A stretch of 46,813 nt of DNA from Nemertoderma westbladi (lineage: Eukaryota; Animalia; Xenacoelomorpha): NCBI GenBank assembly GCA_032718475.1, contig JAUCBJ010009101.1, forward strand, positions 1 through 46,813, written 5' to 3'. The translations under genes were made by a program, and so were the position numbers. The notes beneath the pieces were generated by a model, which saw nothing but the letters and a program-made list of their open reading frames with translations, was not told the origin of the DNA and did no database searches. Positions within the stretch are counted from its first letter, which is position 1, and every line of letters starts with the position of its first letter. Below, in pieces: positions 3,712 to 23,301 of this stretch.

Positions 3712-3966
3712 CAGACACTGGTGCAGAGCTGACAGTGGTGCAGACAGTGGTGCAGTCGTGCAGACACTGGTGCAGACAGTGGTGCAGACAGTGGTGCAGT
3801 CAGTGGTGCAGACAGTTGTGCAGACATTGGTGCAGACAGTGGTGCAGACACTGGTGCAGACAGTGGTGCAGTGCAGACACTGGTGCAGACACCTGGTGCA
3901 GACAGTGGTGCAGACAGTGGTGCAGACACTGATGCAGGCAGTGGTGCAAACAGTGGTGCAGGCAGT
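3712..3966 (+). repeat. 12-bp tandem array (CAGACASTGGTG)n, left arm part 1
   Basis: Direct reading; the array resumes at 24559 after the LTR element. Confidence 0.95.
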
Positions 3967-3971
3967 GGTCT

Positions 3972-5222
3972 TGTACGCGCTTTTGAAGACCTTTAGCAGT
4001 TTAACCTGCCAAAATTTATATGTCTTTTGGTTTATAAATAGACTTTAGAAAATGACAAGTATTTAATACCAATAAACACAACATTAGCCGAAGCCAGCCT
4101 AGTGCGCATCCATTCACCCGCTGGATATACCCGGGAGACTGGATTCGGAGGGCTTAGATTGTTATTGCAGTGTAAGCTTACTGTATTATTCGATTGATCA
4201 TTAATAAATAATTTCTGACTAATATTATTCACTTTCGGGAAATATTAACAGTTCCTTTAGGACGTGGCGCTCTATTTAGGTAAACAGAGATATGACTTAT
4301 ACTAAACACAACGGTAAGTCGGTAAGGCTTATGATTCACGTATGAGGCGCATTCTTTAGGAAATGCTTAGTTATCAGTCACAATCATGCACACTACCGGT
4401 AACACACAATGCTGCACACTAATCTGCCGACCGTCAATGAATTTTATCATATATAAAGAGAACAGCAATTGACTCATGTAGTGCCTATCAAATAGCATTA
4501 AACTCACTACAAACCACGATAATATAAGTCGCAATCGCTATATGTAACCTGTCTCTCTAACCTGTAGTGTATCAAGAAAATTGGGAAATTTGGGTTCTTT
4601 ATAGATGTTCTCCAAATAATATTCAACCAACTGATACAAAATAATAACAACAGTAAAAGCATTAAGACGGTAGGTTAAGATATGATATGACAATGTATGT
4701 GCCGCTAAGACTGGACTGTGCCGAGTTGAACTGGACTGATAACAGTTATACGCTCTATAATCTAAGCCTACTAATGTTTCTTCTAAAGTCTGAAACGAAT
4801 TGACTCTAGAGCCGGTGTTCCTGGCCTAGATAGAAACAACACAACAGTATCAAGAAAAACAGCTACTGTCCCTAACACCGTTGCAGGTATCTTTTACACA
4901 GAGAGGAATAGCTCTCATTGGCAGAACACCAGATTCCACAAGTTCCACGAATATCTAAATGCCGAACTATCAGGAATTTTGCAACCCTTGGCCAACACAC
5001 AAAATGAGTCACTCCGCTCGGTTGTCCTGGTTGCATACTCTGCTGCTATAGCTCTGGTTGGCCGATAGAACATAGTAAAGAGCCCCTCGTATAACAAATC
5101 AGCCAATCAGTCGGTCGCTTTGCATCATTCGAGTTAGAGAGCTTTTTAGAGTATTCCAGCGCCTGGGGGGAAACTGGATTGCAAAGCAAAGGGGCCAGTT
5201 ATATCCCACAAAAGCTTTTACA
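3972..5222 (-). repeat. 3' LTR (1251 bp)
   Basis: Direct repeat of 23302-24553; by eye about 6 transitions and 2 short block indels. Confidence 0.97.
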
Positions 5223-5300: not shown

Positions 5301-5723
5301 TTAGTCTTTCTTACGCGGACGGCGTTTACGCAGTTTTTTAAAGCTAGCCAGAGTCCTTTTCTCTTTGGGGCGAGCCACTTTACAAGGAGGGCTATAACTC
5401 CTGGGTGAAGGGTGCAATATAATTGCATCAGAGGGTGTAGGATTATGGTCGGTGTATCCGCCAGTCGAAGTGCCGGGTTGATTGACATCAACGTCGGGGG
5501 AGAGGGGTCTAACGGCTTTAAGAGCTCGTTTTAAGACAGCCGCTCTTACGGGTCCTTTACGAGTGGTCTGAACGAGAGCCGTGGGTGGACCATAGGCAGT
5601 TAGAAACCTCCGGGGTTTAATGGTTCTTTCCAACTCGCGTTCGCGGGCTCGGTATTCGTAAGGCTGTCGATATACTTCCTGTAACTCGGGGTGTGAGTTA
5701 ACAAATAAGTCCTTTATATTCAT
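5301..5723 (-). CDS. ORF2 segment 3: 140-aa basic, K/R-rich C-terminal part
   Basis: Same frame as 5733-7094, separated only by TAA AGG AAT AAA; ends in KKLRKRRPRKKD (NLS-like or nucleic-acid binding). Confidence 0.65.
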   Translation of the reverse strand: MNIKDLFVNSHPELQEVYRQPYEYRARERELERTIKPRRFLTAYGPPTALVQTTRKGPVRAAVLKRALKAVRPLSPDVDVNQPGTSTGGYTDHNPTPSDAIILHPSPRSYSPPCKVARPKEKRTLASFKKLRKRRPRKKD

Positions 5724-5732
5724 TTTATTCCT

Positions 5733-7094
5733 TTAGTCCGGATCCTGACGGATAAAATTGATTAGGTTATATGAATGAAGGTCGCTAGGATTAACACTCC
5801 TGAGAAATTTGCGTACGAACTTGGTTGAAATACATTCTCCGACGCGCTTCAGTAGTTCGTAACTCGATATGCGTGATTTCTGTTCGACAGAAGCGAATAG
5901 ATAAGGATGGAACGCATAAACTCCTTCGTAAGCGCGTCCAGGATAATAACGATGGCGCGAATCACAATGTAAATCAGCATTCGCTTCCCAAGCTCTGATG
6001 TAACGTAGTGTGATCATTTCATCTACGCTTTCCAAATCGCGATTAAAAGGGCAATCGAAACTGGCGTGTCCCTTTAGTTGACAATGGTGACATTGAGTCA
6101 TAAATTGAGGGCAAACCGCAAAAATATGCAAGTTATTGAGTCTGCAATATGCGCAATAAATTTCCATCGTCGGTTGTTCTTGGAAATAGGAACAGCGGAC
6201 GTTTGCGTCCATGGGCGTATCATGGTCTCTCGATGCGCATAACCGACAACGTTGCCTAGAAACATAGTTGGCATGTCGATAATCGTACGCAGTGAGACAC
6301 TGTGGACCTTGATACCATTCTATGATGTAATCGTTGTCGCTGTTCCGGGGCGCGATAGGCTGAATCTCCTCAGATTCTAGACATATTGGTTCGTCTTCCA
6401 AGTGCATAGCTGAGGTGGGCGTGTCTGTCTCTTCAGGTGGACCTATTGTCTGAATTTCCACGACAGAATAACCTGTGGGGATTCGAGGTCTTTGTATAAC
6501 AGAGGAGTGCAAGTTCGATATACAAATCTCTTTGAAAATGGCGAATCCAGCGCTATCCAACTTCTCTGCAACTGAGTTTCTTAGGCTGAGCTTGGTCAAA
6601 GCGCGGTCTTTAAATTGGCTATCCACGTTGCGGAACGGGGTTAAAAATCGCCGGAAACATTCGAAGCGGATGAATTTATTATGTTCATCTAGCTTAGCGA
6701 GTTTGGTCCCAAGTATCAATGGATGGGCGCGTATAGTACGACTGCACACATCGGCTAGCCAACCGGCAAGTGCGGTGTTTTCAAAGATCGTGTAGATAGC
6801 TAAGGAGGGACGGAGTGGAACACTCATGAAGCTATACACGGCGCCAGGTGCGGTCAATGGTCCATCAAAGTTTAATCGAGAATAATGGTCTCCGTATACT
6901 TGTTGATAGTTGATGGGATATCCAACTTTGAAATTCCATCCGTATTCCTGAAAGGCAAGATGTCCGATGGAAGTTCGTTGCACCTTTGTAATGTTGCTAG
7001 ACGTATTAGCATACATGGTGCGGAAGAAACCTCGACCTTCTGCCCAGGGAGCAATCAGCTGAGTATCAACGAAAGGGTATGGAATGTTCTCCAT
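5733..7094 (-). CDS. ORF2 segment 2: C-terminal half of a DEDDy-like exonuclease domain plus three CCHC zinc knuckles
   Basis: FVDTQL, SIGHLAFQEYG and NFDGPLT...VY motifs; CRLCASRDH..C, CAYCRLNNLHIFAVC, CHHCQLKGHASFDC; the frame stays open upstream to the TGA at 7149-7151. Confidence 0.75.
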   Translation of the reverse strand: MENIPYPFVDTQLIAPWAEGRGFFRTMYANTSSNITKVQRTSIGHLAFQEYGWNFKVGYPINYQQVYGDHYSRLNFDGPLTAPGAVYSFMSVPLRPSLAIYTIFENTALAGWLADVCSRTIRAHPLILGTKLAKLDEHNKFIRFECFRRFLTPFRNVDSQFKDRALTKLSLRNSVAEKLDSAGFAIFKEICISNLHSSVIQRPRIPTGYSVVEIQTIGPPEETDTPTSAMHLEDEPICLESEEIQPIAPRNSDNDYIIEWYQGPQCLTAYDYRHANYVSRQRCRLCASRDHDTPMDANVRCSYFQEQPTMEIYCAYCRLNNLHIFAVCPQFMTQCHHCQLKGHASFDCPFNRDLESVDEMITLRYIRAWEANADLHCDSRHRYYPGRAYEGVYAFHPYLFASVEQKSRISSYELLKRVGECISTKFVRKFLRSVNPSDLHSYNLINFIRQDPD

Positions 7095-7148
7095 ATTCCG
7101 AAAGTCGTTTTGGAGATCTCCATAAACAGCTGAGCCGATTTTAAGGAT

Positions 7149-9434
7149 TCATTCGTTGAACAACATCTCGAGTACGGGCTGGGGTAACATCGATCCATCG
7201 ATACCCATGGCCGGTTTGCGTTCGGTGTCAATGACGTAACGCTGCGCGAGTTCGAATTGTCCATGTCGGAGATTCTTTTGTGTTTCGGTGAGAGTTTCAA
7301 AGGAATAATCAATCACGTCGGAACACGCTCGAGTAAACACGTGGGTAGAACCAGCTAATCCGCGTATGTGGATCATGCGCGTAGTTCCTAGTTCTCCGAC
7401 CGGAACGCTACCTTCATTATCGTAGGTGACAACTCCATACATCTCAATAACATTAAGAGTTTCATTCCACTCCTTGGTGGCGTTCTCTAGGGTCATCCCT
7501 ACTGGATGCCACAAGGTGGCGCATTGGTTAGCGTCAGGGAGATCACTATACTTCATGTGCCGAGTGGTATACGTCTCCACATTTCCATATCTTTGTATTT
7601 TCTCTTCTTCAAATAATACATCTAGATTCCAATGGACTAATCGAGTTTTAATAAATCCATCGAGATTATAAGGAGGTTCTATATCCTTCTCGATTCGAGA
7701 AATGTTATATGGTTTTCTAAATGAGTTTACCTTTACTAACTGATCCAGATGTTTCTGCAATTGTTCGAGTTCGACAATGTCTAGAGGATTTATTAGTGGT
7801 AGAAACTTTAAATTATGCGTCGGGTCTTCTGGTTTTACCATATAATATTGAGTCAGATTAACGTAATAAGGGTGGTCTTTAATCCCATAAAACGAGTTCT
7901 GTAAAGGTCTAGCGCGTATGTTGACATCGTGTACCATACGACGGACAAGATCCGCTCGATTGTCCGGAGGTTCAACGAGTATACCGTCAACACGAGCGGC
8001 CTCGATCGGCGGACGCTGTAACATAGGGGCGTCAGCGATAAGATTTTGCGATCCTGTACTGATATCAACCGGTTGAGGTTGTATCGTCGCGAAGAGTTTG
8101 TCTCCGAAATGTGGAATCATCGAGGGATGACGGATGGTTTTAGAGTAGAGATCCGTCATAAGGATTTGAGCTTCAGGTTGGGCTAAAGCGGCTTCTTCTC
8201 TCTCGTCCATTTTCGTGCGTTTCTCTTCGAGTAGATTTTCTTCCGCTTGTCTCTGTAAGCGTTCATCTAAAAATTCTTGTAGAGAATACGTGCGTCCAAG
8301 CTCGATGTCCTCCTCTAGGTTTTGGATTTCTCTATCGAACTGTGGCAAGGCTAACTCCTTCACCGATTGGACTTGTTGTTGTAATTTATGTTTCTCTAAA
8401 CAATCTTGTGTTCCCTTTCCGATCTTCTGTCGAATAGCGTCTAAAGCGTTTCTTATAACGCTCTCCTCAACTTCCGTGGCGGGTTGCATCGGGTTTAATC
8501 CTGGACGATTGTAAGGATCAAAGGGCGATATTAGCTGCCCGCGTCCCAATCCGGCTAAGTAGGATGGGCGAATGTCTAACGAACCCACTACCGGAGCACC
8601 ACCGATTAATTGTTCGGGTAACACTAAGTCTTTGAACAGGGAATATAGTTCGGGAGGATCAGTGATACTGTTAGGATCAAGAGTTTGAGGTCTCACTAGG
8701 GAATGAGGAGGCCTGACCGAGTATTCCGGAACTCTGATCATGGGTTTATTCAGTGATCGTTTAAGACGAGCGATCGTAGGTGGTACATCGAACAGGTTTC
8801 GCTCGAAACTCCCGTAAGTGTAACGCGTAAAGCTGTGTTCAGCGCAACATCTCCGCGGATGTTTATGTCTTTCAGTTTGTTGGTTGGGTCTAGGGCATTC
8901 GTCACAATAATACCAAAGACGTACGTCCTGTAGAGGAAACGCGGGTGATCGTTCTCCAGTTTTGCAATATTCTTCCATTTGTTCAAAACTATCCGGGATA
9001 ACAGGTAGTGGACGATCGGCGGTAAGATACATCATCGTGAAATAGAGCCATTTGAGTTCTACCACAGGGTCATGATGTATACCTTGAGGATATCGAGTCT
9101 CTAGGTTCTGCTGACTGGCGATGTTGAGATAGGTTTCTCTCAAAAATTCTAGGTATTCGTTGAAGTCGATGCGTTTATCCGGTTCCTCAACGTTTTCTCT
9201 TTCCAGTCTATTACGAATAGAATTTTCGTGATCTATTCTCGGTTTATCGTTACGACTCCGCTGGGTATGATATTTAAATAGAACCATTTCCCTCTCTGTA
9301 TCTACATCGTCCGTATCATGTAAATCGATAGGATGGCCGGTAGTTAAGAAGTCCATATACGTACCATTACGATTCGTATAGCGAGCGGTGAATTTTCGAT
9401 AATCCAATTCACGCGCAAGTTGCTCTTGGGACAT
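7149..9434 (-). CDS. ORF2 segment 1: 761 aa, Cys/His motif, coiled coil, N-terminal half of a DEDDy-like 3'-5' exonuclease
   Basis: Long open frame; CDEC..HKH..CC..H; E/Q/L-rich helical stretch; VVTYDNEG (ExoI D-x-E) and LPQPVLEMLFNE. Confidence 0.78.
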   Translation of the reverse strand: MSQEQLARELDYRKFTARYTNRNGTYMDFLTTGHPIDLHDTDDVDTEREMVLFKYHTQRSRNDKPRIDHENSIRNRLERENVEEPDKRIDFNEYLEFLRETYLNIASQQNLETRYPQGIHHDPVVELKWLYFTMMYLTADRPLPVIPDSFEQMEEYCKTGERSPAFPLQDVRLWYYCDECPRPNQQTERHKHPRRCCAEHSFTRYTYGSFERNLFDVPPTIARLKRSLNKPMIRVPEYSVRPPHSLVRPQTLDPNSITDPPELYSLFKDLVLPEQLIGGAPVVGSLDIRPSYLAGLGRGQLISPFDPYNRPGLNPMQPATEVEESVIRNALDAIRQKIGKGTQDCLEKHKLQQQVQSVKELALPQFDREIQNLEEDIELGRTYSLQEFLDERLQRQAEENLLEEKRTKMDEREEAALAQPEAQILMTDLYSKTIRHPSMIPHFGDKLFATIQPQPVDISTGSQNLIADAPMLQRPPIEAARVDGILVEPPDNRADLVRRMVHDVNIRARPLQNSFYGIKDHPYYVNLTQYYMVKPEDPTHNLKFLPLINPLDIVELEQLQKHLDQLVKVNSFRKPYNISRIEKDIEPPYNLDGFIKTRLVHWNLDVLFEEEKIQRYGNVETYTTRHMKYSDLPDANQCATLWHPVGMTLENATKEWNETLNVIEMYGVVTYDNEGSVPVGELGTTRMIHIRGLAGSTHVFTRACSDVIDYSFETLTETQKNLRHGQFELAQRYVIDTERKPAMGIDGSMLPQPVLEMLFNE

Positions 9435-9571
9435 CGGGGTTCGATATAACGACCATCGTCCTCTGTAATGGTGGGATCGGCTTCACCACGTATTAAGCTA
9501 TCCACAAATGCTTGTAAAGGTAGAGTATATCGCTCCCTAATACCAAGATCATCTTCTATCAACTCCGTCAT
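9344..9571 (-). CDS. Probable N-terminus of ORF2, offset by one frameshift
   Basis: 75-aa ORF overlapping the start of the 761-aa ORF; one extra C in GAA CCC CG ATG would fuse ...GRYIEP to MSQEQ... Confidence 0.4.
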   Translation of the reverse strand: MTELIEDDLGIRERYTLPLQAFVDSLIRGEADPTITEDDGRYIEPRCPKSNLRVNWIIENSPLAIRIVMVRIWTS

Positions 9572-10423
9572 ATCTGCTATCTGAGTTTATTAATATCACA
9601 ATGAGTTTATGTTTAGGCGAGCGGGCGTCGCTGCCTACCTCTCTTTGCCCCCGGACAGTGGGATTCTCAGCGCCGATGTACCGTCGTCGCGGTGTTTACG
9701 CCAACATGTAGCAACAGCACGACAACGATAACCGGCACAAGTCACTCCACTGTCCGTCCCAAAGGCTTGGATCCACTTGAGGTTCTTTCTATAGGAGAGT
9801 TGGGCTACTTTTGCAATTGCGACTAGCTACTGTAAACATACTTTAGCAGTAACATTCACCTATAAACGCACAAATTCCACACAACTGTCACCAATTGTAC
9901 ACATACAGGCCATTTGTCCATTAGTCCTGAATGAATAGCAGTTAGAAAAGCCGTTAGGCCTTCCAGAATGTCACGTTATTACTGTGTATCCTTGGATACT
10001 AACAGTGTGCTATGTATTCTCTATGCTATGCAATGGGACAAGCTTTCTATTGTTCTCTTAACTTGCTTCTAATTCCAGCGTGGGTGTTGCTATGGTGACA
10101 TTATGGAATGCTAGCGGTAGAATTAGGGTAATTCTCATGCATACAGATCTGGAATGCTATTTAATAGTAATTCTTTAATTGTCAATATCCTCTTTATGCA
10201 TGATTTTATTAATTTTATCGGCTATTGACTATAATATGTTGGAGATTCTCGCACTCTAATACACTCAATAGGATGAATCTCCGCTCCCATGATCTATTAA
10301 TTAATGGAATTTTGGGAATGTTATAAATTGCACAAAATGACAATTTATGAAATTCATTTATAATATGAATTTAAATTTATTCCCGTGAATTTTATTATTT
10401 GATGTTAAAATTGACACGATTTT

Positions 10424-10685
10424 TATTCCAGAGCATGTCTGGGGACTGAGGATCCTGAATTCTATAAAAATTGTCTTTTAAGAGTATCGGTAAGTGCAGC
10501 GATATCTTAATTGACTAGAAATTTTAAAGGATCTGAATTTTACAGATTTTAATAAATATTAAATTAATATTTAAGATGGGCACCGATTTATTCCAGAACT
10601 TGTCTGGGGACGTTAACCACTGATTCTAGAATTTGTCTTTCAAGTATATCGGTGGGTGCCACGATATCTTAATCGACTAGAATTA
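10424..10685. repeat. Two diverged ~100-bp direct repeats (period ~165 bp) in the pol-ORF2 spacer
   Basis: ttattccaga-N5-tctgggga...gtatcggt...gtgc..cgatatcttaatygactagaa at ~10424 and ~10589. Confidence 0.75.
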
Positions 10686-11224
10686 CAGATGGTCAAAGGT
10701 TTAACAGATTTATTTGCGTTTTTACGCTGCTGTTAGAGGGACATCATGCTACTATATGTATTATTTAATATAAGGTAGAAGAGCAATATCGCACGAAGCA
10801 ATGTCAGTGTGAAGAGGCAAGTCGTTTCCAAGGTCTACCCAGAGCTTGGTTTAGCCGAGACACGAGGATCTGAACTTTGCATTCCTAATACTCTGCCTAC
10901 CAATAATACTTGAATATAGTAGTGGCTTTATTGTACTTTAATAAGTACGGACATTTCATCTTACTGTAGTCACGTATTTATAATATGATACGGACAGTAA
11001 GGAAAGAGAAAATTATTTCTCGCCGTCATACTAAATATATATTATATATGTAATTTCGTAATAAACACTAATATATTGCACTAATCTACCAAATAATCTA
11101 AAATAACCTTCTACTAAATAAAATTGAATAAAAACGATTATAATAAAGTACATAATAAAGTTCGCATATAAAAATATAATAAAAATAGATAAAACAATAT
11201 AGTCATACACCCACTCCAGACGTA

Positions 11225-14200
11225 TCACGTTGGGGAGTCCCTAGATGTTTGAGGAATTAGGGAGGTGGTCGTGGGAAGAGTGTCTTGCCTTCCATAGTTT
11301 CCGGAGAGTTCTCTGTCTCTTTCCAGTAAACATAAACGACCAACTGGGCGGTTGAGTTGTTGCGTCTCAAAGATTATGCCTGGCTTCTTGAAGTTACGCC
11401 GCATGACGACGAGTTCTACCGAGCGTACTAAACCATCATCCGAGATGTGAGTCTCGATGATACGACCTGTCTGCCACCGTTTATGTGGGAGATCTGAATC
11501 TACAATAAGCACCATATCTCCGGCACTGACGTTTTCTTGCTGCGCAAACCACTTAGTTCGAAGTTGTAGCGTGGGCAGATAATGTTTCTCGAAATGGTCA
11601 GCGAAACGACGGGATAGCAACTGCATAAGTTGCCAAGTTCGATGGCAGTATTCGTCTCCGTCGGCAATCTCCGATCGTGGGAGCATGGCTACAGGTTTCT
11701 TCAGTAGGAAGTGCGCGGGTGTTAGCGCTTCCAGGGAATCGGGACTCGATGAGACTGGCATAAGCGGTCTCTCGTTGAGATAGGCAGCTATTTCCTCCAT
11801 TAATGTCCGCAAAAGTTCGTCGGTGAGATACGCGCGGCATGGCACTATAAAGTGAAATGCGGTCTTGACACTTCTAATTAATCTCTCCCAACTTCCTCCC
11901 CACCAAGGGGCGTCGGCGGCGTTGAAGGTCCAGCTAGACGCTGTTATCCTTAGCTGATCGTCCACCTGTCTTTGGTTCCAGTCCTTCACGTAAGCCTGTA
12001 TTTCGTTGTTGGCACCAATGAAGTTTGTTCCCTTATCCGATCTCATGGTATTACTCGTCCAGAAGCGAGCGATCTGTCGGCGTAAACTTAAGACGAAACT
12101 GTTGGTAGATAGATCGTTCACCATATCGAGATGGATGGCTCTGAAAGTCATGCATACGAAGATGACACACCATCTCTTGACTATAGTCCTAGCACGATAT
12201 ACTTCAATAGGGCCAAATAAATCTACACCAGTATTAGTAAAAGGTGGTTCATAGAAGCTTACTCGTTCCCTAGGTAATTCTGCCTCTCGCTGTGTTAAAG
12301 GCCTACTGAATGCTTTCCTACAGGGTATGCAGTTCCTTAGAACTTGGTTCAGAGCTCTACGGGGTTTATCAAAATAATAGCGAGTTCGAATTTCGCTAAG
12401 AACTCGTTCTCTACCAGCATGATAAAGTTTACTGTGAACATCTACAATCATCTTGATTTGTACTTCAAGATTTCTAATGAGTATGGGGAATTTAGTGTCA
12501 AAGGATAATGGCGCATTGGTGAGCCTTCCTCCAACACGTATTAACCCATCTATCATTGTGCTAGAGAATCGATCCCTTAAGCGCATCTGCGGATTTCTCA
12601 ACAACAGGAAATACTTATCGGAATCCTCATAGCATTGCAGGAGTCTCAGTATCTGCTTATAGGTTTCTTCATGCTCCTGGTAACTAATTTTCTCCTTTAG
12701 AAACCGGTCGGATGTCTTATATTTGGGTAAATTTTTAATAACATGAACTTGCGCAGATGTCAATGGAGCGGTATCACTAATGGTCTTCGTCCTGGAATAG
12801 TGATGATGAAAACATCTCCTTAAATACGTGACGGCTTTACAGAGCCGATTCCAGGAACTGTAGTGATGCATTGCTCTCTGCAGCAGGGGTGAGATTCCTT
12901 GCGAGATGTCTGGTATTCCAGATTTCCAATCTCTATCTCTAATTTCCGCAACAGACTTATTTGTGGCGAGGGATTGTGGATCCGAAGCATCGTTTCTGGA
13001 AGTATGTAATACAGATAGATCGATCGTCGGTTTAAATAACTTCGATTTACTCGCCCGGGTTTTAGGTTTGACTGTCTCCGCTCCCTTGGCTTGTCTAATC
13101 TCCGCCGTAGTAAGGTGAGGAGGCCATTCATCCTCTTCCTTGCTCAGGAAGTCGGGTCCACCCAACCAGTCTGGAGTATCTATCAGTTCCTGTGGAGTCG
13201 CTCCCCTGGAGGCGATATCGGCTGGATTAATCGTACCAGGGCAATGTCTCCATTGATCTATCTTTGTGCGACTAAGAATAATAGCTACCCTGTTAGTAAC
13301 AAAAACGCTGAACTGACAGACTTCATTGGTTATATACTCCAACACGAGTAAAGCGCCGGTCCAATAAACAGTTTTCTCCAGTGGATAGTCGATTTGTTCT
13401 GTTACGTTCCGGCCGATGGCTGTAGCGTATAAAGCCGCCTTTAACTCCGCTCGAGGAACCTTTAACTTGTTGTTAATCAATGCCTTAGAGGTAACCAAGG
13501 CGACCTTGATTCCATCCGGAGTTTCGACTCGCAGATATGCCACTATACCTATTCCCATGTCGCTGGCGTCTCCAAACACATGGAGTTGATAGGAATAAGT
13601 AGGGAGAACATGACCAAAATATGCACGGGAAATTATAAAGCTCTCGATGGCAGGTAGAGAATCTTCCCATTTCATCCATTTCTTTAACAGTTCTCCCTTA
13701 AGCGGATCGTCCCATGAGTGGTTTTCAAGCCACATTTGTTGTACTAAACTCCGAGCAATCAATATAACTGGGCTAATAAATCCCAATGGGTCGAAATAAG
13801 TGCTCAGGATACTTAAACAAATCCGTTTGGTCCGAACTGGATTATCTCGCTGTTTGAGCTGAAAAAACAGGATATCTCTTTCAGTGTCCCACTTCAAGCC
13901 AAGCGTCTTGGTTTCTGGAAGATCATCCTTTATTAAGTCTAGGTCTTTCGCTCCTCGGTCTTCTACCGGTATTGCTTCCAGAAACTCACGGGAGTTGCTG
14001 GTGAATTTCGTCAGTCGAAATCCACCTCTTTTCAAACACTCTACTGTTCCTTTCGCGACATCAATGGCTTCTTCTACTGATGGAAGGGACCTTAAATTAT
14101 CGTCCATGTATATATTACGCTTGATGTTGTCTATCACCTCTTTTGAGAAGGCGTCTCGGTTGTCATTCGCAGTGGTCCGCACCACGGAGCAGGCGTTGGA

Positions 14201-17200
14201 AGGGCTTGATATGATCCCAAAAGCCTGGATGGTCATCCAGTACTCTACCGGTTTCTGGTTGAGATCTCCTTCAGGCCACCACAGAAATCTCAGGCTGTCT
14301 CTATCTCTATCCAGCGCCTTGACTTGTAAGAACATTCCTTCTATATCGGAGGCGAACGCGATGGAATATTGTCTTAATCTTAAAAGTATTCCCAACAAAG
14401 ATTGGAGTAAGTTGGGTCCTGGTAACAACTCGGAATTGAGGGATTGGCCCATATATAGAGCGGAGCCATCGAATACGACTCGTACTTCGTGGGGTTTACC
14501 GGGTTTGGGAACGTAATGATGTGTTAAGTAATACGTTCTCTCAGTCACTGGTGTTCCTTCAGGTACTCGCTCCGCGTATCCCTTTGTTATAAATTTCTTC
14601 AACTGAGTTTGGTACATTTCTTTAGCTGAAGCATTAGCCGTAAGGCGTCGATGCAATTGAGCGATTCTTTTCTCTGCCAAGGGTCTGTTATTTATAAATC
14701 TAGGTTCTCGTTTTCGAAATGGTAGGCCGATTTCATATCTACCTCGGTCTTTTAAAAAACGTGTAGTTGTTTCCTGGATTTGCTTGGCTCTTTCTTCTTC
14801 TATCGATAGGGCCTTATCGTATGAATTGGGCTCTACCAATTCTTGAGTAAAGAATCGTACGGCGAGTTCGTCCCGAGTTCTAGGGTTGTAGCGCTCTATC
14901 TCGTCATTTAGTTCGTCATTGTAATCAATGGGTCCCGATGGGCGAATCAGTTGACATAGGTTCACCTGATTTTTCCAAGTTTTGTTTTCTGTAAGTAGGT
15001 CGATTGTGTTCTCTTCATCGAAGAGTTGGTAGATGTCGTCATTATCTGAGGAGTATGGTGTTCCCTCAGTTAGTTCGTCCACCTCACTGCTCTCCACTTC
15101 CCAATCATTTACTTGGTATATTCGTTCTTGTGGCATTCTCTCTTCGAGAGTTTTGCGGGAAGGGCCAGTAAAGTACCAACCTACTCTAGTTCTTACCGCA
15201 TAGGTTTGCAGTGGCTGCGGTTGAGCAGGCCGTTTCTCCAATGTCTCGAGCGCCTCATGCGCGTTTTGGCCGATGAGTATTTGCACTCCAGGATAATCTG
15301 TCTGGAATCGAGGTATCTTAAGATGTTGGATGCTCTCATCCTCGTCCCAATTATAAAGGTCTGCTTGGGTAGTAGCGAAGTTCTTTATAGCCACCATTTT
15401 TACCGACCTTATACCTTGTGCTCCTAATTTATCCTGGGGGGTGGACAACACACCTACATAGTAATCTGCCGTTAGGGTAGATTTCCAAACCTGCATAATT
15501 CCTGACATATTCAATTTAGTCCGGAATTTGGGTTGTCCAGCAAAGATATCTTCGGCTAGTTCTTGATCGATGAATGTTCCTGTGCTGCCGGAGTCAAGGA
15601 GGGCGTTCACTATGTAACTTTTGTTAGGACCATGAACTCTTACCTGCACTACAGGAAATTCTCTGATTCCTACGTTGGAAGTTGGAGCTTTCCAAGATGG
15701 TTGTCTGGCAAAAGTAGTTGGGGGGAACTCATTGTTGGTGTCCTTTTCATAAGTAAGTGCTCGATACACCGCGGTATTGATTAGATAACAGGATTCGTTG
15801 GCGTCGGAGAATTCGTCCGTATAGAATCCTTCCATCTCAGACTCTTGATCAGTGTCATTTACATCACTGAATTGGACATGTAGTTCGGGCTCACTTACCT
15901 GACTCGGGTTGTCTCGTTCGAACTCACTGTGTAACAAGATGTGATGTTTCGCGCCACACTTTGCACACTTTAGGCAATTATAGCATAACCGCTTATCCCA
16001 CACGACTGCACGTCTGTCTACAAGGGATTTCTTTAGAAATTCAGCACACGCACTCAAACGGTGGGTCCCGTCGCACAGCGCACAGTTAGGTTTTATGTTA
16101 CTCACTTTACCTTGGGTAACCTGATGCACTCTCGTTCTTTCTTCGGGCTTTCTTCCGTGCATTCTGTTAGGAGACTGAGGAGGGGTCTTGGCAACCTGTT
16201 CTCTCCTATCGTTGGTTCGAGCCTTGTATTTACTTACGTCTTTTGGGGTTTTGTTAACGTAGTAAAATTTGTCAGTGTCTTTCCCGCTGTCCTCTTCTTG
16301 AGAAGCTTGGCTTTCGCCGTCGTCAGTGTAACACACCGGTGTGACTCTTCTCCTAGAAACGGGTTTCTCACTTACCTTATTTTCCGATGTTTTTTCTCTG
16401 GACTGCTTGATGAGTTGTAGTTTTACTTCACCATCTAAGAAGGACATGAGATCAGCCATGGTAGGGCTTCGTCGTTGCTGCTCATTCATATACAACACTT
16501 TCTTGTCCCAGCGTGTACATACTCCACCCTTTGGTAAAGTAGAGACTACTGCTCCAATAACCATGGAACTCTGATATTCATGAGACTTACCTAACCAGTC
16601 CAATTGTCTACAGATCTCCTGAATCTCATCGGAAAACTCTATAATCCCGCTACTAAGGAAGTTTCGGGGGGCTACTAATTTTGCATACAAATACTTAGCT
16701 ATGTTATCCTTGTTACCATACCTGATGTTTAATGTATCCCAAACTTGTCTTAATCCTTCTGGATGTCCAATAAACTTTAACGCCATTAACTTGGGAGGTC
16801 CTTCCAAACACTTGATGAGGAACCTAAGTTTCTCTCCGTTAGATAGTACAGAGTTCTGTATGCTATCTTTGTAATATTCATTGAAAGGTAACCATTTCAT
16901 CTCATCTCCATTGAATTTGACGATCTCTCCCACTTTGACCGCTTGGCGGGCTTCTGTTCTAGCCATCTGACGCGTAAAGCTTTCTTGGGCCATCGTGTTA
17001 TTTAATATCGAATTATCGGTATATAAATTTCTCGGATCATTATCAGTTCTATAGGGAATATCATTAACAACAGGTTTATAATGACCCCTAATAGGGTTTG
17101 CTATAGGAGTTTCTACTTCACTAGCAGTATAGATGCGTGTAGGCTCCACACCTTGCGCATGTAATACTTCAGACCTAACAGGTTGACACAATGTTACTGG

Positions 17201-19315
17201 GGGTATTGGTATACCCTTTTGACTATTGACTATATTGACTAATTTGTCACGTTCTAGCGCGATGCTTTGCTGCACTTCTTGCAATTCTGCCCTACTTTCC
17301 CTTACTGTTCCCTTAAGTTGGTAGACAGTCTCCTGCATCTGTCCGAGCAGGAGATTCATCCCCCGCCGTCCCTCCTCTACCCACTCGACCGCCGAAGCGG
17401 GAGTCGCCAACATTGTAGCGGGCTGACGTGGGACGACGGGAGACAAATCTTTGATTTCTCTCTCAGCTTCCAGGACAGGGATATTCTCATGGACTGTTCT
17501 ACCGGGTACAGGCAGTGTAGTACTGTGTAAAGGAAATTTAGAGTTAAGCTCTGGAAGTACAGGGGTCTCTAGCACAGGAGTGGCTTTGGGAACGACAGGC
17601 CCAATTATTTCAGGCTCATCAACTATTGTAGGGAGTCCTTTGACCTGAATAATTTGTTCTGTGGGTTCTGTACTACCTAAGTCTGTGCTAGCTAGTTGTC
17701 TTCTAACCGCTGGGGGCAAATCAGGCAATTTGTGACAGTGAGATGTTTTTCTACGCCTGCCTAGACGAGATCTATTTCCTCCGCCTTCAGGATCGGTGGT
17801 CTCGCCTTCCTCCGATGATGTGTATCCTTGGCGCTTGGGAGTAGATCGACTCCTCATCTGCATTTGACTAGCAGTTAACTGTTTATTTATGCAGTCTTGC
17901 GTCTCTTGAAGATTTTCCAACTCCAGTTGTGTGGTCTCTTCAGACGCTCTCTGTTCTGCGTCTGCCAATGCCATTGCTGCTGCTGCTTTGGCTGCTTCCA
18001 CTGCCGCTGCCGCTTTTGCTTCTGCTACTGCCTCTGCCGCTTTCGCCGATGCTACTGCCTTTGCCGCTTCCACTGCCGCTGCCGCTGCCGCTTTTGCCTC
18101 TTCCACTGCCGCTGCCGCTTTCGCCGCTGCTACTGCCTTTCTGTCCTCTATCCGTTTTTTCTTTACTTGTTCTTCTTGGACTCTAGCGAGGCGGAGTTTT
18201 TCATCAAATTTAGCTTGGTTTGCAGCTAACATTTCCTCATCGATTGAGTCCAACACAAGCTTGGCTCCTTCACTATTGGGGCGAAGGCCAGCCAGTCGTC
18301 TCCTCAATTCTTCATCACCTAGGAAACATTGATAGTCTGACAGATAGATGTCTATGGCGTCTCTCGTTCGCGGTCTCTCTGCGGTCACTTCGCTTTCCTC
18401 TTGAGAAAAGGTGGCATCAGTTGATTCTTCATAGGTTGGTCGCTCCACCAGCTGGGATTTCCACTGGGCCGTTTCTTGTACTTTGAGACCCACCCGCTGG
18501 AACCAAGTCTTGACAGCAACCTGCAACGACGTGTCCTGTCTTCTTTTGGAAGTTTCCTCAAAGGCTGATAGGATTAGTCGAATGCGTAGGGTTTTTTCGC
18601 GTACTTGATATAGCAGCTCTTCCTGCTCTTGAGGTCTTTGGGGTTGTCGAAACAGTTGTTCTTCTAATCGCTCCAAGGAGCCGAAGAATCCCTGCACATA
18701 TCCTGCTGCCGACCTCTTCCAAACAGCTGGATCCATCGTATCTTTAGCTACTCCCATCCTGTGTATATCTTCCCAAGTTGCTTCGGACAAATCTAACGGG
18801 AGTCCGGGTCCGGGAAAGTTCCATTGTGACTCGACAATAGACATCAATTCTTCCCTGGCGTATCCCGCATAACTATCTTGGGTCGCTCGCTTACTTCTCG
18901 CCCAATCGGCTTGATGTTCCTCCACCGCAATCAATATTGTCGTTAGCACTGCGGCAGGAATGGTGAGAAGGGGATCCGAGTAGGCTGTAGCCGCCATCTG
19001 TACTCCGTGTTCGGGGGTCAGCTCTACAGTATCCGAACTACTGGAGCTATCGGGTCGCTGGGAACGAGTTTCTTGACTAGGCTGTTGCTGCTGTTGGACA
19101 GCTGCTTCCTGGTTCCGTTTGACCTGGGCCCGAGTGCCGATGATAGACCTACGGTGTTGGATTAGCTTAGGGTCTGATACTACTACTGGAGGGATGACCT
19201 TTCTTTCAGTAGGAGGTGAGCTGAACTCCTTTCTTAATCGCTCCACACTCCTATCTGTGTCACAGATGGTTGTATCGATTAGACTGTCTGACAGGTTTTG
19301 CTGGGTGTCAGACAT
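11225..19315 (-). CDS. BEL/Pao Gag-Pol polyprotein, 2696 aa
   Basis: DUF1759-like KFNGDEMKW..EKLRFL..CLEG; Cys/His knuckles; protease ALLDSGS; RT SDIEGMFLQV..YMDD; RNase H LHVFGDAS..VPRAELKA; integrase H-H-C-C, GVDLFGP, SDKGTNF, WGGSWERL. Confidence 0.97.
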   Translation of the reverse strand: MSDTQQNLSDSLIDTTICDTDRSVERLRKEFSSPPTERKVIPPVVVSDPKLIQHRRSIIGTRAQVKRNQEAAVQQQQQPSQETRSQRPDSSSSSDTVELTPEHGVQMAATAYSDPLLTIPAAVLTTILIAVEEHQADWARSKRATQDSYAGYAREELMSIVESQWNFPGPGLPLDLSEATWEDIHRMGVAKDTMDPAVWKRSAAGYVQGFFGSLERLEEQLFRQPQRPQEQEELLYQVREKTLRIRLILSAFEETSKRRQDTSLQVAVKTWFQRVGLKVQETAQWKSQLVERPTYEESTDATFSQEESEVTAERPRTRDAIDIYLSDYQCFLGDEELRRRLAGLRPNSEGAKLVLDSIDEEMLAANQAKFDEKLRLARVQEEQVKKKRIEDRKAVAAAKAAAAVEEAKAAAAAAVEAAKAVASAKAAEAVAEAKAAAAVEAAKAAAAMALADAEQRASEETTQLELENLQETQDCINKQLTASQMQMRSRSTPKRQGYTSSEEGETTDPEGGGNRSRLGRRRKTSHCHKLPDLPPAVRRQLASTDLGSTEPTEQIIQVKGLPTIVDEPEIIGPVVPKATPVLETPVLPELNSKFPLHSTTLPVPGRTVHENIPVLEAEREIKDLSPVVPRQPATMLATPASAVEWVEEGRRGMNLLLGQMQETVYQLKGTVRESRAELQEVQQSIALERDKLVNIVNSQKGIPIPPVTLCQPVRSEVLHAQGVEPTRIYTASEVETPIANPIRGHYKPVVNDIPYRTDNDPRNLYTDNSILNNTMAQESFTRQMARTEARQAVKVGEIVKFNGDEMKWLPFNEYYKDSIQNSVLSNGEKLRFLIKCLEGPPKLMALKFIGHPEGLRQVWDTLNIRYGNKDNIAKYLYAKLVAPRNFLSSGIIEFSDEIQEICRQLDWLGKSHEYQSSMVIGAVVSTLPKGGVCTRWDKKVLYMNEQQRRSPTMADLMSFLDGEVKLQLIKQSREKTSENKVSEKPVSRRRVTPVCYTDDGESQASQEEDSGKDTDKFYYVNKTPKDVSKYKARTNDRREQVAKTPPQSPNRMHGRKPEERTRVHQVTQGKVSNIKPNCALCDGTHRLSACAEFLKKSLVDRRAVVWDKRLCYNCLKCAKCGAKHHILLHSEFERDNPSQVSEPELHVQFSDVNDTDQESEMEGFYTDEFSDANESCYLINTAVYRALTYEKDTNNEFPPTTFARQPSWKAPTSNVGIREFPVVQVRVHGPNKSYIVNALLDSGSTGTFIDQELAEDIFAGQPKFRTKLNMSGIMQVWKSTLTADYYVGVLSTPQDKLGAQGIRSVKMVAIKNFATTQADLYNWDEDESIQHLKIPRFQTDYPGVQILIGQNAHEALETLEKRPAQPQPLQTYAVRTRVGWYFTGPSRKTLEERMPQERIYQVNDWEVESSEVDELTEGTPYSSDNDDIYQLFDEENTIDLLTENKTWKNQVNLCQLIRPSGPIDYNDELNDEIERYNPRTRDELAVRFFTQELVEPNSYDKALSIEEERAKQIQETTTRFLKDRGRYEIGLPFRKREPRFINNRPLAEKRIAQLHRRLTANASAKEMYQTQLKKFITKGYAERVPEGTPVTERTYYLTHHYVPKPGKPHEVRVVFDGSALYMGQSLNSELLPGPNLLQSLLGILLRLRQYSIAFASDIEGMFLQVKALDRDRDSLRFLWWPEGDLNQKPVEYWMTIQAFGIISSPSNACSVVRTTANDNRDAFSKEVIDNIKRNIYMDDNLRSLPSVEEAIDVAKGTVECLKRGGFRLTKFTSNSREFLEAIPVEDRGAKDLDLIKDDLPETKTLGLKWDTERDILFFQLKQRDNPVRTKRICLSILSTYFDPLGFISPVILIARSLVQQMWLENHSWDDPLKGELLKKWMKWEDSLPAIESFIISRAYFGHVLPTYSYQLHVFGDASDMGIGIVAYLRVETPDGIKVALVTSKALINNKLKVPRAELKAALYATAIGRNVTEQIDYPLEKTVYWTGALLVLEYITNEVCQFSVFVTNRVAIILSRTKIDQWRHCPGTINPADIASRGATPQELIDTPDWLGGPDFLSKEEDEWPPHLTTAEIRQAKGAETVKPKTRASKSKLFKPTIDLSVLHTSRNDASDPQSLATNKSVAEIRDRDWKSGIPDISQGISPLLQRAMHHYSSWNRLCKAVTYLRRCFHHHYSRTKTISDTAPLTSAQVHVIKNLPKYKTSDRFLKEKISYQEHEETYKQILRLLQCYEDSDKYFLLLRNPQMRLRDRFSSTMIDGLIRVGGRLTNAPLSFDTKFPILIRNLEVQIKMIVDVHSKLYHAGRERVLSEIRTRYYFDKPRRALNQVLRNCIPCRKAFSRPLTQREAELPRERVSFYEPPFTNTGVDLFGPIEVYRARTIVKRWCVIFVCMTFRAIHLDMVNDLSTNSFVLSLRRQIARFWTSNTMRSDKGTNFIGANNEIQAYVKDWNQRQVDDQLRITASSWTFNAADAPWWGGSWERLIRSVKTAFHFIVPCRAYLTDELLRTLMEEIAAYLNERPLMPVSSSPDSLEALTPAHFLLKKPVAMLPRSEIADGDEYCHRTWQLMQLLSRRFADHFEKHYLPTLQLRTKWFAQQENVSAGDMVLIVDSDLPHKRWQTGRIIETHISDDGLVRSVELVVMRRNFKKPGIIFETQQLNRPVGRLCLLERDRELSGNYGRQDTLPTTTSLIPQTSRDSPT
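17970..18140 (-). repeat. Ala-rich coding minisatellite (AKAAAAVE)n in the Gag N-terminal extension
   Basis: In-frame gcc/gct-rich repeats. Confidence 0.85.
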
Positions 19316-19706
19316 GTTTAGCTATACAGTTGAATGCTTACTGCTATAGTTACAGTTAAAGCAAGTCTAGTAATTCAGTATGACCGTTGGCCTAGTACCG
19401 GTAATTTATTACAGTATATTAGAATACCGGTATACACTTATAATATATATAAGTATTGTAAACTAGGTTTGTCACAGAGTACCGGTATATAATTTTAGCA
19501 CAAATATATATAAATATATAATAGGTCTATCGTGAATACCAGTATGCAGCTTACACTTATAGTATATATAAGTATAATTATGAACTAGAATTAATTACAG
19601 AATGATAGAGTTTGAGTTGCTGGGAACCTGAAGCTTATTAAGGCAACAATAAACAGCGCAAATAACTTAAACTTCATGATTTGAGAAATAAAGATTCTAA
19701 AAAACA

Positions 19707-19747
19707 GCTGACGTTTCGATTTATTAAACAATAATCAATTTCAAAGC
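19707..19747 (-). ncRNA. Degenerate minimal hammerhead ribozyme-like motif in the Penelope pLTR
   Basis: Minus strand GCU-UUGAAAUU-GAUU(N11)AAUC-GAAAC-GUC-AGC: stem I, stem II and GAAAC/GUC present; core is a U3-A8 variant with a non-consensus A9>U. Confidence 0.55.
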
Positions 19748-20051
19748 AAAAACAAATAAATACCTGAAAATTAGTGAAAGACAGTACTAAATACAAAATA
19801 CAATAAGGCTGGTGAAGATTGCAATAACAATACAAAAAAAACAATTTACAAAATAATGGGTGTGGCTAGTGTGCAAAAAATGGTTGTAATTGAATATGGA
19901 AGGCGTGTACAGCAGTACAGTACTACAGAAACAACAAGAGCGGATAGTACAAGACAGTCCAGTAAGAAAGTCAGGACCTACCGGTACACGAATAAGGCAG
20001 TACGTGAGGTAGGGGCGGGGGGGGGGGGGGGGGGGGGGGTATATCAAGGAA

Positions 20052-21278
20052 CTACAGTAGGGAAAGGAAAGTCAAAGTTGTTTGGTCATTTAAAGTGGGG
20101 CGAAGTTTCCTAATGAATAAAGTCTCTTTAATGAGAAGTTCGCGCAAGTTACGTGATGTTGATAAGATGCTGAAATTTTCTTTTAACGTGGGATGATCGG
20201 CGGTGGAGGAGTGTTCAAAGATAGAAGAATTTTTTGGACGGGAGAATTTTCCAGAGTTGTACAAAAAGCCAGTGTGTTCCTCAACACGTTTAGCCAGGTG
20301 GCGTACAGTGCGTCCAACGTAAGAAGCATCGCAGCTTCCACAATTATAATGGTACACAACACCCGACCGTATGTGTTCAGGAATCTGATCCTTGTACGGG
20401 AAAAGGGAGGATAGCCTACAGCTGGTTTGGAAGACAACTTTTAAATCCAAGTGAGAAAGACTCTGTCGGAAAAGGCGTAACAGACGTTTCTTTACAAGCG
20501 CGCCGTGGTGGCCGGTAAAAGGAAGGCAGATCAAAACACTCCGTTTGGGTACTGTAGTTATAGGGGGTGATCGTGGTTCACTAATACGATTGAAGAATTT
20601 TTTAATGGCAGAGTTAATGAAAGCCAGTGGGTAACCATTACAACGAAGGGTATGAGTGAGTTCTAGTAACAAAGAGTGACACGTGTTGTAACTAGATGAA
20701 ATATTAAAGCAACGAAAAATCAACGTAAACACCAATCCAAACTTATACTGTATAGGGATAAAGCTGTTAAAATTAGAATAGAGACCAGTGTAGGTCGGTT
20801 TTTTATAAGTGCTAGTCTGAAACTTTGTATTAAAATTTTGTTTAACCAAAATATCTAGAAATGGCAGGCACGAGTTTACAGACTGCTCACAGGTGAACTT
20901 GATATTAGAATGTTGAGAATTTAAATAAGACAAGAAATCAATCGACTGAGAGATATTGTTAAACACCAAAAACGTGTCATCCACATACCTTCTGTAAAAT
21001 ATGGGTTTGAAATTGGGGGGGCATTTATTTAACCAGACAGTTTCATGGTGTGCAAGGAAAGCATTGGCTAATACGGGGCCAAGGGGGCTGCCCATTGCTA
21101 CACCATCTAGTTGTAAGTACATTTTACCATTGAAAATAAATGTACAATCTTTAACAGCTAGCGACAATAAGGTTTTAAACTCTGCACGATTGAGACCGGA
21201 GATTCTAGGTTCCACACTATTGAGAGGTGTGAAAGAAGACGGATTGGGTTCCGGTATAATAAATAAATTGTTTAACAC
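20052..21278 (-). CDS. Penelope-like RT (C-terminal part) plus GIY-YIG endonuclease, N-terminally truncated
   Basis: GVAMGSPLGP..LAN, YRRYVDD, LPFLD, YKKPT; GVVYHYNCGSCDASYVGRT..R..EH..E..LN. Confidence 0.95.
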   Translation of the reverse strand: MLNNLFIIPEPNPSSFTPLNSVEPRISGLNRAEFKTLLSLAVKDCTFIFNGKMYLQLDGVAMGSPLGPVLANAFLAHHETVWLNKCPPNFKPIFYRRYVDDTFLVFNNISQSIDFLSYLNSQHSNIKFTCEQSVNSCLPFLDILVKQNFNTKFQTSTYKKPTYTGLYSNFNSFIPIQYKFGLVFTLIFRCFNISSSYNTCHSLLLELTHTLRCNGYPLAFINSAIKKFFNRISEPRSPPITTVPKRSVLICLPFTGHHGALVKKRLLRLFRQSLSHLDLKVVFQTSCRLSSLFPYKDQIPEHIRSGVVYHYNCGSCDASYVGRTVRHLAKRVEEHTGFLYNSGKFSRPKNSSIFEHSSTADHPTLKENFSILSTSRNLRELLIKETLFIRKLRPTLNDQTTLTFLSLL

Positions 21279-22408
21279 GATATCAATAGTTTCTACTAGT
21301 AGAAACTATTTAAGTTATTTGCGCTGTTTATTGTTGCCTTAATAATTACAGAATACCGGTATAATTTCAGCCTAAATTTATAGAAATAAAGATAATAGGC
21401 CTATCGTGAATACCGGTATACCAATTATTTAAATAATTGAATTTCTGAATTTAAAGGTTACCTAGTTACTTTAACTTACTTTATTACCGTTATTTAAGCA
21501 GTATTCCAACTGATATTGAGACCTAGTTGTTGTATGGCAGGCCTACTATTTATAAATCGTTTGAGTTGATTTATAATATTTATATACCCGTTTAAAATGG
21601 GTTTTGTCAATATTTGAAATAAATGTTATTATTTCTGGGGGAAGTCACTACACAGAAGCTGTGCGCTCTCAGTGAAGTGCTACTTATGGGACACTAAAAC
21701 AGATAATTCTAATTTACCTAAGTTACTTAATACTACAAATTACTTACGATACGGGTGAGATTAAATCTCTAATTAAACACAACAAAATATTACGTACGAA
21801 ATTTTTAGGGTAATTTTACAGGAAGTCTACAAACCAGCCTAACAAAGGGTTAGAATTCTGGTTATTACAACGGACAGGGTACTACGGTATTTGAAAATAA
21901 TAAGTAGTAGTAAATATATTGCGCTGTCCAGATAGGAAAATACCACCGCCTGACGACCTATAGCCGTATCGCTATAGGTACTACGTTATGTATCACGGAG
22001 TGTTCCTACCTGGAAGTTAATTACCGCGGACTACCAGATCCAACGTGCCTATTAACCACTTTACAACACAATACACTGCCCACGCACTAATTACTTTCGG
22101 AAAGCACTGTACACTAAACCCTAAATTAGGTACAAGTACTGGTACAACAAATAATCAGTAGTTAAATATACTTGAACAGTTAAAAGAACCACGGCATCTG
22201 CTGGAGTGACCGGAGCACAAAGTCACCAGTCTTTACCTACGCCAAGCAGCCCGTGTAGTACCGGGGTTAATTTAACTATAACGGTATGTGTAACAAGCAC
22301 AATTACTGTAGGAATAAACTTGGGGACATGAATGTTGCGAATAATCGCATAAACTCTGAATAATAAATATTACGCTACCCGTACAGAATACTCAAACAAA
22401 ATACAAAC

Positions 22409-22930: not shown

Positions 22931-23125
22931 ATCTGAACAATCTGAGCAGACTTACACGTCTTCAGCTCAATATTAACTTACATGTAAATAAAACCGACAG
23001 AAATAAGTAAAATCTCAATAAAAAACCAGGGCGGCCGTTCCCTGATTAAGTATTAAGACCTACCGGTATACAATAATCAAAATCGAATAATACTAATGTA
23101 CTTATACTGGAAGTACCGGTTAGGA

Positions 23126-23236: not shown

Positions 23237-23301
23237 AGGTTTACCGGTCGACCGGTACTTTCAACTTTATTGCTTACTGCAATAAAGACAATAACTGTTA
23301 T

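Follow-up and report, generated by a model that had tools for sequence, protein, structure and literature searches.

What is encoded by the roughly 1,400 codons that lie between the gag-pol gene and the 3′ long terminal repeat (LTR) of a large retrotransposon in Nemertoderma westbladi? The element belongs to the BEL/Pao group and was found on contig JAUCBJ010009101.1 of assembly GCA_032718475.1, the whole of which (46,813 nucleotides) is referred to below as the window. An earlier note, made from the letters alone, had read the codons as a second open reading frame (ORF2) unrelated to envelope genes, with a 3′-5′ exonuclease-like domain of the DEDDy type and zinc knuckles. We find that ORF2 is a conserved gene of the element family and that its central domain very probably has an exonuclease fold, as judged from a distant homolog and its structural models.

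One minus-strand frame spans 9482-5301 and contains three stops, including the terminal one, as compared with 74 and 97 in the other two minus frames. The note had set the coding stretch at 9571-5301; a coding frame indeed occupies the space that separates pol from the 3′ LTR, but the Met at 9571 is out of frame in this copy. Similarly, it had seen the internal in-frame stop at 7149-7151, which interrupts the exonuclease-like domain in this copy, but had overlooked a second one at 5733-5735. This copy cannot make the full ORF2 protein. From the N-terminal end, the regions are:

9345..9571, minus strand: short frame opened by an upstream Met and, in this copy, not in register with ORF2; about half of the family's depth is of another length close to this point
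7470..9434, minus strand: ORF2 N-terminal region, ~655 amino acids from the in-frame Met
6745..7470, minus strand: predicted EXD2/WRN-type 3′-5′ exonuclease domain, assigned from motifs and from homolog P0005 (see below)
5880..6248, minus strand: three CCHC-type knuckles and a conserved tail, in common with P0005 and a second homolog, P0006
5301..5732, minus strand: 143 more codons that stay in frame past the second stop and include a Met at 5723; their end is basic and resembles a nuclear localization signal

The 143 open codons past the second stop argue that the tail is coding; 5301-5732 may be part of the ORF2 protein or a separate small ORF. The N-terminal Cys/His motif, the coiled-coil-like stretch and the basic tail that had been described were all located. 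The N-terminal region contains the Cys/His cluster (8906-8835), a Pro-rich stretch and a predicted coiled coil rich in E, K, R and Q (~8402-8165). It matches no Pfam or NCBIfam family, and a search of its residues 17-330 in a language-model atlas gave no match, a null result that shows neither novelty nor absence. No transmembrane-like segment is present in any of the four ORF2 pieces (the best 19-residue Kyte-Doolittle mean is 1.21); thus, in line with the note, ORF2 is not an env gene, and a Pfam scan of ORF2 found no env or viral glycoprotein family.

In order to follow ORF2 across the family, variation was read from four of seven listed sequencing runs, namely X1, X3, X4 and X5, one of which is labelled as a second organism; X5 may be RNA, and its coverage is not taken as a sign of expression. 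ORF2 is covered in all four. The share of the depth that departs from this copy at the first stop is 98% in X1, 97% in X3, 100% in X4 and 100% in X5, so that the stop at 7149-7151 is private to it. Close to where ORF2 begins at its 5′ end, the length differs from that of this copy in 42-100% of the depth, which indicates that the frame break after Met 9571 is not general in the family. The 40 differences displayed, which the tool selected from 4,446, do not include the second stop. In X1 and X3, most of the element has a summed contig depth ~1000x that of an insert nested in its leader (such depth is not copy number), and read identity to the element ranges from <90% to >99%. The depth excess and the spread of identities indicate that the family has many diverged copies.

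Among the 11 ORF2 contig pieces listed, 10 are ungapped despite 518 substitutions in 4,474 bases, while the eleventh has 18 gap letters; it should be noted that only the longest pieces are retained by the tool, a selection that may work in favour of those without gaps. In a small, tool-selected sample of variants (15 rows shown and 14 classed, the stop row being excluded), 7 of the 10 shared ORF2 variants are synonymous against a neutral value of 0.286 (p 0.008), as is 1 of the 4 private ones. The gag-pol control gave 8 of 9 for shared and 3 of 7 for private variants, and the ORF2 pattern behaves like this control. ORF2 is therefore present and constrained in other copies: it is a conserved family gene under coding constraint. 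Some copies have one-base losses within ORF2 (6347). A joint between 6398 and 9203, found in three of the four runs, marks a 2,804-base deletion in which the nuclease is lost together with most of the N-terminal region. It was rejected as a splice junction, given that as many as 2,804 bases are missing, that no GT-AG borders are seen on the element strand and that it is present in DNA runs.

Direct searches with the window's own exonuclease region were negative. With the stop read as X, the exonuclease-like region, for which the note had called for a profile search, matches no Pfam family at E ≤ 10; none of its four PDB sequence matches is an exonuclease, and NCBIfam and PHROGs give no exonuclease match. 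The exonuclease call for the window is thus indirect, since the assignment rests on P0005. This protein came from a search of the ORF after the first stop against 1.84 billion protein representatives, which gave four matches, two of them informative (P0005 and P0006); the other two, P0004 with an acidic repeat and P0007 with nothing but knuckles, were set aside because they match by composition or motif. P0005 is a metagenomic protein of 648 amino acids whose residues 120-251 match residues 1-141 of the ORF after the first stop (E 3e-4). In pairwise comparison, the two align with an E of 2e-12 and 31% identity, scoring 135 against 27 ± 5 for shuffles, with 0 of 2000 shuffles as good. The relatives are only 26-31% identical.

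Several methods place the P0005 domain near the DEDD exonucleases. Its best Pfam match is DNA_pol_A_exo1 (E 0.039, below the cut-off). In the language-model atlas, 25 of the 30 matches of residues 30-290 belong to the PF01612 set, with 177 of 256 features and a score of 0.94, whose calibration was not measured for protein parts. Two structural models were made, with poor mean predicted local distance difference test (pLDDT) values of 33.2 and 39.7, the latter being that of a model of the P0005 domain from a three-row alignment without any known exonuclease. With this three-row model, the first 12 Foldseek matches shown are EXD2 or EXD1 (best E 1.3e-3); we take 29 of the 43 matches shown to be DEDD-fold proteins. 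Foldseek with the P0005 model gave no match at E ≤ 0.001. VIA ranks EXD2 first among 48,161 chains (root-mean-square deviation 3.0 with 79 aligned residues, model residues 2-90), with a Z of 6.5 that is middling by the tool's scale (<8) and 4.9 for the next chain. The three-row profiles found no PDB exonuclease domain. These comparisons agree, although each is weak, and we consider it highly probable that the window's domain has an EXD2/WRN-type DEDD exonuclease fold: the DEDDy-like fold that had been proposed is supported through P0005 and a model of low confidence (pLDDT 39.7), but not by a direct match of the window. Word-index searches for homologs found none among 1,932 longer candidates, with P0005 retrieving only itself and the three-row profile only P0006; viral contig scans and a plasmid scan gave no match; and a metagenome scan gave no match with a single protein and one locus among 141 pattern matches with the alignment.

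The motifs quoted in the earlier note were found where it had placed them, and one of them was assigned a different role. The predicted catalytic residues are D(7421)-x-E(7415) at ExoI, D(7118) at ExoII and Y(6794)-x3-E(6782) at ExoIII. ExoI and ExoII lie ~101 residues apart, and another 108 separate ExoII and the Tyr of ExoIII. The ExoII Asp pairs with D130 of P0005 in a significant alignment. ExoIII had been read at PLTAPGAVY; the alignment instead pairs window PLRPSLAIYTIFENT with P0005 PLCHDQLYYIYCENT, which sets the motif (YTIFE) 14 residues later, the domain ending at ~6745. A version of ExoIII with Ser for Asp, at PLTAPGAVY, was dropped in view of the same alignment. At ExoI, VTYDNEG of the window lines up with SIDVER of P0005, and 1530 of 2000 shuffles score as well. 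Both proteins thus have a predicted D-E-D-E active site, i.e. D-x-E, D and Y-x3-E, with Glu where DEDDy enzymes carry Asp. Since Y-x3-D is not found at ExoIII, the domain is classed as DEDDy-like and not as a DEDDy member.

Downstream of the domain, three CCHC-type knuckles are present, as had been described, but only the one at 6092 has the canonical spacing (CX2CX4HX4C); the others are CX2CX5HX4C at 6155 and CX2CX4HX9C at 6248. Their profile matches the knuckles of nucleocapsid, Lin28 and Air2. P0006, a protein of 633 amino acids, matches both the window's knuckles and the tail after them, as well as the N-terminal domain of P0005 (0 of 2000 shuffles in each case). From these matches, ORF2, P0005 and P0006 share a common layout: an N-terminal domain, an acidic linker, three knuckles and a conserved tail. 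P0006 has D-x-K at ExoI and lacks ExoIII, so that its nuclease domain looks dead and the family appears to include both live-looking and dead-looking members. The P0006 gene (124-2025 on contig L001) contains a tandem duplication of the three-knuckle-plus-tail module. Beyond it the contig has non-coding DNA, then a TGG-type site at 2963 and the first part of an acidic ORF, for which Pfam gives no useful match. This context fits an LTR element without proving one.

The element that carries ORF2 is a complete LTR retrotransposon of 20,582 bp on the minus strand (24553-3972), flanked by a 5-bp target duplication (AGACC) outside both LTRs. Its other features are:

23302..24553, minus strand: 5′ LTR, 1,252 bp, TG...CA
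19600..21353, minus strand: nested Penelope-like fragment in the 5′ leader, 1.75 kb, partial reverse transcriptase (RT)
11225..19321, minus strand: gag-pol, a single ORF of 2,698 amino acids in the order protease (PR), RT, RNase H (RH), integrase (IN)
9572..11224, minus strand: pol-ORF2 spacer, 1.65 kb, AT-rich (GC 0.35)
3972..5222, minus strand: 3′ LTR, 1,251 bp, TG...CA, with a short purine-rich tract before it

The LTRs are 97.8% identical over 1,262 columns (9 mismatches and 4 gap openings). The gag-pol product matches DUF1759 (4.7e-12), Peptidase_A17 (7.8e-35), DUF5641 (1.7e-19) and Integrase_H2C2 (2.5e-6) in Pfam, all above the curated cut-offs, with LDSG at residue 1242, YMDD at 1738, DAS at 1918 and the integrase from 2290. 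Given the group-specific DUF1759, Peptidase_A17 and DUF5641, the order PR-RT-RH-IN in one gag-pol ORF, and TG...CA LTRs with a 5-bp duplication, the element is a BEL/Pao member (Belpaoviridae), as the note had it. The second Gag zinc knuckle (~15990) looks shortened in this copy with respect to the BEL/Pao pattern, and run X5 has loose ends at 15972, near this knuckle. Another joint, from 13260 to about 15035, removes part of pol and is seen in all four runs.

The Penelope-like insert is 5′-truncated and has a 417-codon frame (RVT_1, E 3e-5), a GIY-YIG-like motif by eye and a short inverted repeat at its end, and is flanked by a 12-bp duplication. Joints that bypass it (19592-19599 to 21345-21354) are present in all four runs, which puts the insert outside the family and the family unit at ~18.8 kb. 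By the 20-kb internal-length rule for giant elements (PMC6431247), the element is large and not giant. Direct repeats are found in the long leader (22410-22928, 2 × 229 nt; 23112-23236, 3 × 38 nt) and in the pol-ORF2 spacer (10465-10682, 2 × 56 nt); these are possible enhancer, packaging or subgenomic-promoter elements. The spacer has no ORF of more than 63 codons and contains five acceptor-like sites by a simple scan. The element sits inside a 12-bp satellite array (3731-3969 and 24566-24751), with a further inverted array nearby (25376-25779). Further along the window, two very long frames (41126-42769 and 45320-46741) with RUN, Rab-binding and TBC domains form one host gene, which we take to be SGSM-like; a (CCGA)n run lies between them.

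The start of reverse transcription raises a second question, since no tRNA-type TGG start is present directly after the 5′ LTR. Two positions are of interest:

23291..23301, minus strand: primer-binding position, 11 nt, no TGG start
24079..24089, minus strand: candidate self-primer, an 11-nt LTR site that is the exact complement of the primer-binding position (3′ LTR copy at 4739-4749)

The complement lies 464 nt into the LTR, and a match of this kind arises in 11 of 5000 dinucleotide shuffles. The 11-mer is contiguous, with no AG directly preceding it, and a primer built through an intron need not be assumed. In an RNA starting at the 24089-side site, the minimum-energy fold pairs the ends, whereas the centroid leaves them unpaired. 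The sequence of one X3 contig departs from the element right behind the 11-mer at the primer-binding position. The site is nearly palindromic and may instead be a TATA-like promoter element. Tf1 primes with its own first 11 nt, using RNase H alone (PMC7175516), and the arrangement described here is a candidate Tf1-like self-priming signature in a BEL/Pao element. Self-priming in BEL/Pao was not found described in the literature covered, most subscription journals and Repbase Reports being outside its scope. A link between self-priming and the ORF2 module is possible.

What the ORF2 protein does for the element can be approached from the behaviour of its nuclease module, which suggests, from the sequences compared, an accessory role of the conflict type. 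We tentatively favour a role in counter-silencing, in which ORF2 would protect the element's RNA from host small-RNA silencing. The module diverges fast, survives in dead-looking form, appears dispensable in cis (the nuclease-deleting joint occurs in three of the four runs) and resembles nucleases of small-RNA pathways, and for these reasons this role is preferred. Nibbler, for example, acts in such pathways. EXD1, Mut-7 and Maelstrom also have roles in them (PMC5408684), and a DEDD domain joined to CCHC knuckles trims RNA 3′ ends in trypanosome RNase D (TbRND; PMC7797062). ORF2 would be made from a subgenomic or spliced RNA, and its protein would act in trans on RNA 3′ ends. As in the trypanosome enzyme, the knuckles could hold single-stranded RNA in such a way that its 3′ end is passed on to the nuclease. 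The targets might be PIWI-interacting RNAs (piRNAs) and small interfering RNAs, or tailed decay intermediates; these would be trimmed, while dead versions would only bind them, as a decoy.

A number of points weigh against this reading and the exonuclease call beneath it. Pfam, PDB, NCBIfam and PHROGs give no direct exonuclease match for the window's sequence; the structural models are poor, the Foldseek E never reaches 0.001 and the VIA Z is middling; and the three-row profiles retrieve no PDB exonuclease domain. ExoI is placed by motif only, its piece scoring no better than shuffles against P0005. The fourth acid is Glu, and the predicted nuclease activity is uncertain, since the Asp at this position binds metal in TbRND, where its replacement by Ala leaves the enzyme almost inactive (PMC7797062). 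The selection test rests on 40 of the 4,446 listed differences, chosen by the tool. For the exonuclease-like ORF3 of rotifer elements, Rodriguez et al. (2017; PMC5408684) found neither a clear link to copy number nor a significant departure from neutrality. Finally, counter-silencing, RNA transport and primer trimming fit the evidence alike.

RNA transport and primer trimming are accordingly close rivals of counter-silencing. ORF2 could be an RNA-binding adaptor, not a nuclease in practice, that coats unspliced genomic RNA and passes it to the export or transport machinery. This is a little less probable in our view. It has parallels in CERV, which serves Cer1, and in Egalitarian, an exonuclease-fold protein for dynein cargo; however, the CERV domains are unrelated to ORF2, and the retention of D-x-E, D and Y-x3-E in two proteins that are only ~31% identical suggests a metal site under selection. 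In addition, the basic tail lies past the second stop (5733-5735), which may be general or private. It is rather unlikely that the nuclease matures the element's own 11-nt primer, trimming the cut RNA to the duplex edge, or trims a cDNA or genomic RNA end. The missing TGG site, the exact LTR complement and its low frequency among shuffles, the minimum-energy pairing, the Tf1 precedent (PMC7175516) and the processing of structured RNA 3′ ends by RNase D-type enzymes (PMC5408684) would all suit such a role. Nonetheless, Tf1 manages with RNase H alone, the 11-nt site is nearly palindromic, possibly TATA-like and unpaired in the centroid, and P0006 looks dead and is encoded on a contig with a TGG-type site.

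Two further explanations are less likely still. That the domain is not a DEDD exonuclease, or that ORF2 is a decaying passenger useless to the element, seems improbable: the lack of a direct profile match, the weak models, the two stops in this copy and the one-base losses at 6347 would fit it, but three methods agree for P0005 (Pfam, albeit below its cut-off, the atlas and the fold), and the synonymous excess and the gap-free divergent pieces are at odds with decay. Least plausible of all is an exonuclease that proofreads or repairs cDNA ends and thereby allows an 18-kb RNA genome to replicate, like the nidovirus ExoN. In its favour stand the length of the element, 18.8 kb once the nested insert is left out, and the fact that EXD2 and WRN, the nearest matches of the fold, act on DNA, as DEDDy enzymes do on single-stranded DNA (PMC5408684). 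However, ORF2 is a separate ORF with RNA-type knuckles, unfused to RT, dead-looking relatives exist, and for the longer planarian elements the domains listed in the available text of PMC6431247 include no exonuclease. The broadest version of our proposal, which we regard as doubtful, is that a tRNA-independent BEL/Pao lineage uses a D-E-D-E exonuclease-knuckle enzyme to make its primer or to destroy piRNAs, and that ORF2 would be the type member of a widespread accessory nuclease family with live and dead forms.

To our knowledge, few counter-defence or accessory enzymes are known in animal retrotransposons. Through a conserved exonuclease-like gene in BEL/Pao, a gene type of rotifer elements would reach a further LTR superfamily; such a gene would add a different catalytic signature and an RNA-binding module to the exonuclease-like genes of retroelements, and would suggest the repeated recruitment of 3′-end nucleases against host RNA surveillance. 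The many diverged copies and the derivatives lacking the nuclease make the question of its role testable, and the self-priming signature offers a second testable link. DEDDy extra ORFs in LTR elements are already known from rotifers. What is new here is the BEL/Pao host of an exonuclease-like ORF, the exonuclease-plus-knuckle module with its distant relatives, and the ~655-residue N-terminus with no known family. The extra ORFs of BEL/Pao treated in PMC554778 and PMC13524379 are env-like. No exonuclease ORF in BEL/Pao was found in the literature, where most subscription journals, Repbase Reports and supplements were outside the search, so that an older account may exist, and the available text of PMC3601003 contains nothing on such an ORF or on self-priming in this group.

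The closest known counterparts are the ORF3 genes of the bdelloid rotifer Juno, Vesta and Athena/Terminon elements; bdelloid rotifer elements had rightly been named as a precedent in the earlier note. We take Juno and Vesta to be Ty3/gypsy-like. They are called retrovirus-like in PMC5408684, where the ORF3 proteins are described as DEDDy with the motif DEED and with activity not demonstrated (reviewed in PMC5718144 and PMC6431247). Compared by description, ORF2 is like them a family-specific ORF that follows pol and is not env, with a predicted DEDDy-type fold and a changed acidic motif. They differ in having DEED and no coiled coil, whereas the BEL/Pao gene has D-E-D-E, three knuckles, a coiled-coil-like stretch and ~1,400 codons. 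The Cer1 precedent, also named there, is not supported: neither 'exonuclease' nor 'DEDD' occurs in the main text of the CERV paper (PMC10309623), in which H, M and G domains are described, in a Ty3/gypsy host.

As for the candidate primer, in Tf1/sushi elements too the primer-binding position is complementary over 11 nt to a sequence derived from the LTR. These elements belong to Ty3/gypsy and have no extra nuclease, and the RNA 5′ end is mapped in Tf1 (PMC7175516), while in the BEL/Pao element 24089 is a candidate start. The layout of ORF2 has its nearest cellular likeness in TbRND, in which a DEDD exonuclease is followed by a run of CCHC knuckles that aid RNA 3′ trimming (PMC7797062), and the TbRND structure 7c42 appears in our fold and profile match lists. 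TbRND is a cellular mitochondrial enzyme with four knuckles on a short linker and Asp in ExoIII; in ORF2, by comparison, the domain-to-knuckle linker is ~165 residues long, a conserved tail follows the knuckles and the predicted fold is matched more closely by EXD2, and the resemblance is probably convergent. The PF01612 proteins, i.e. EXD2, EXD1, the WRN exonuclease, Nibbler and Egalitarian, come closest to the homologous domain both in structure and by language model; ORF2 differs from them in having long insertions between the motifs (~101 and 108 residues), Glu in ExoIII and no significant sequence match to them.

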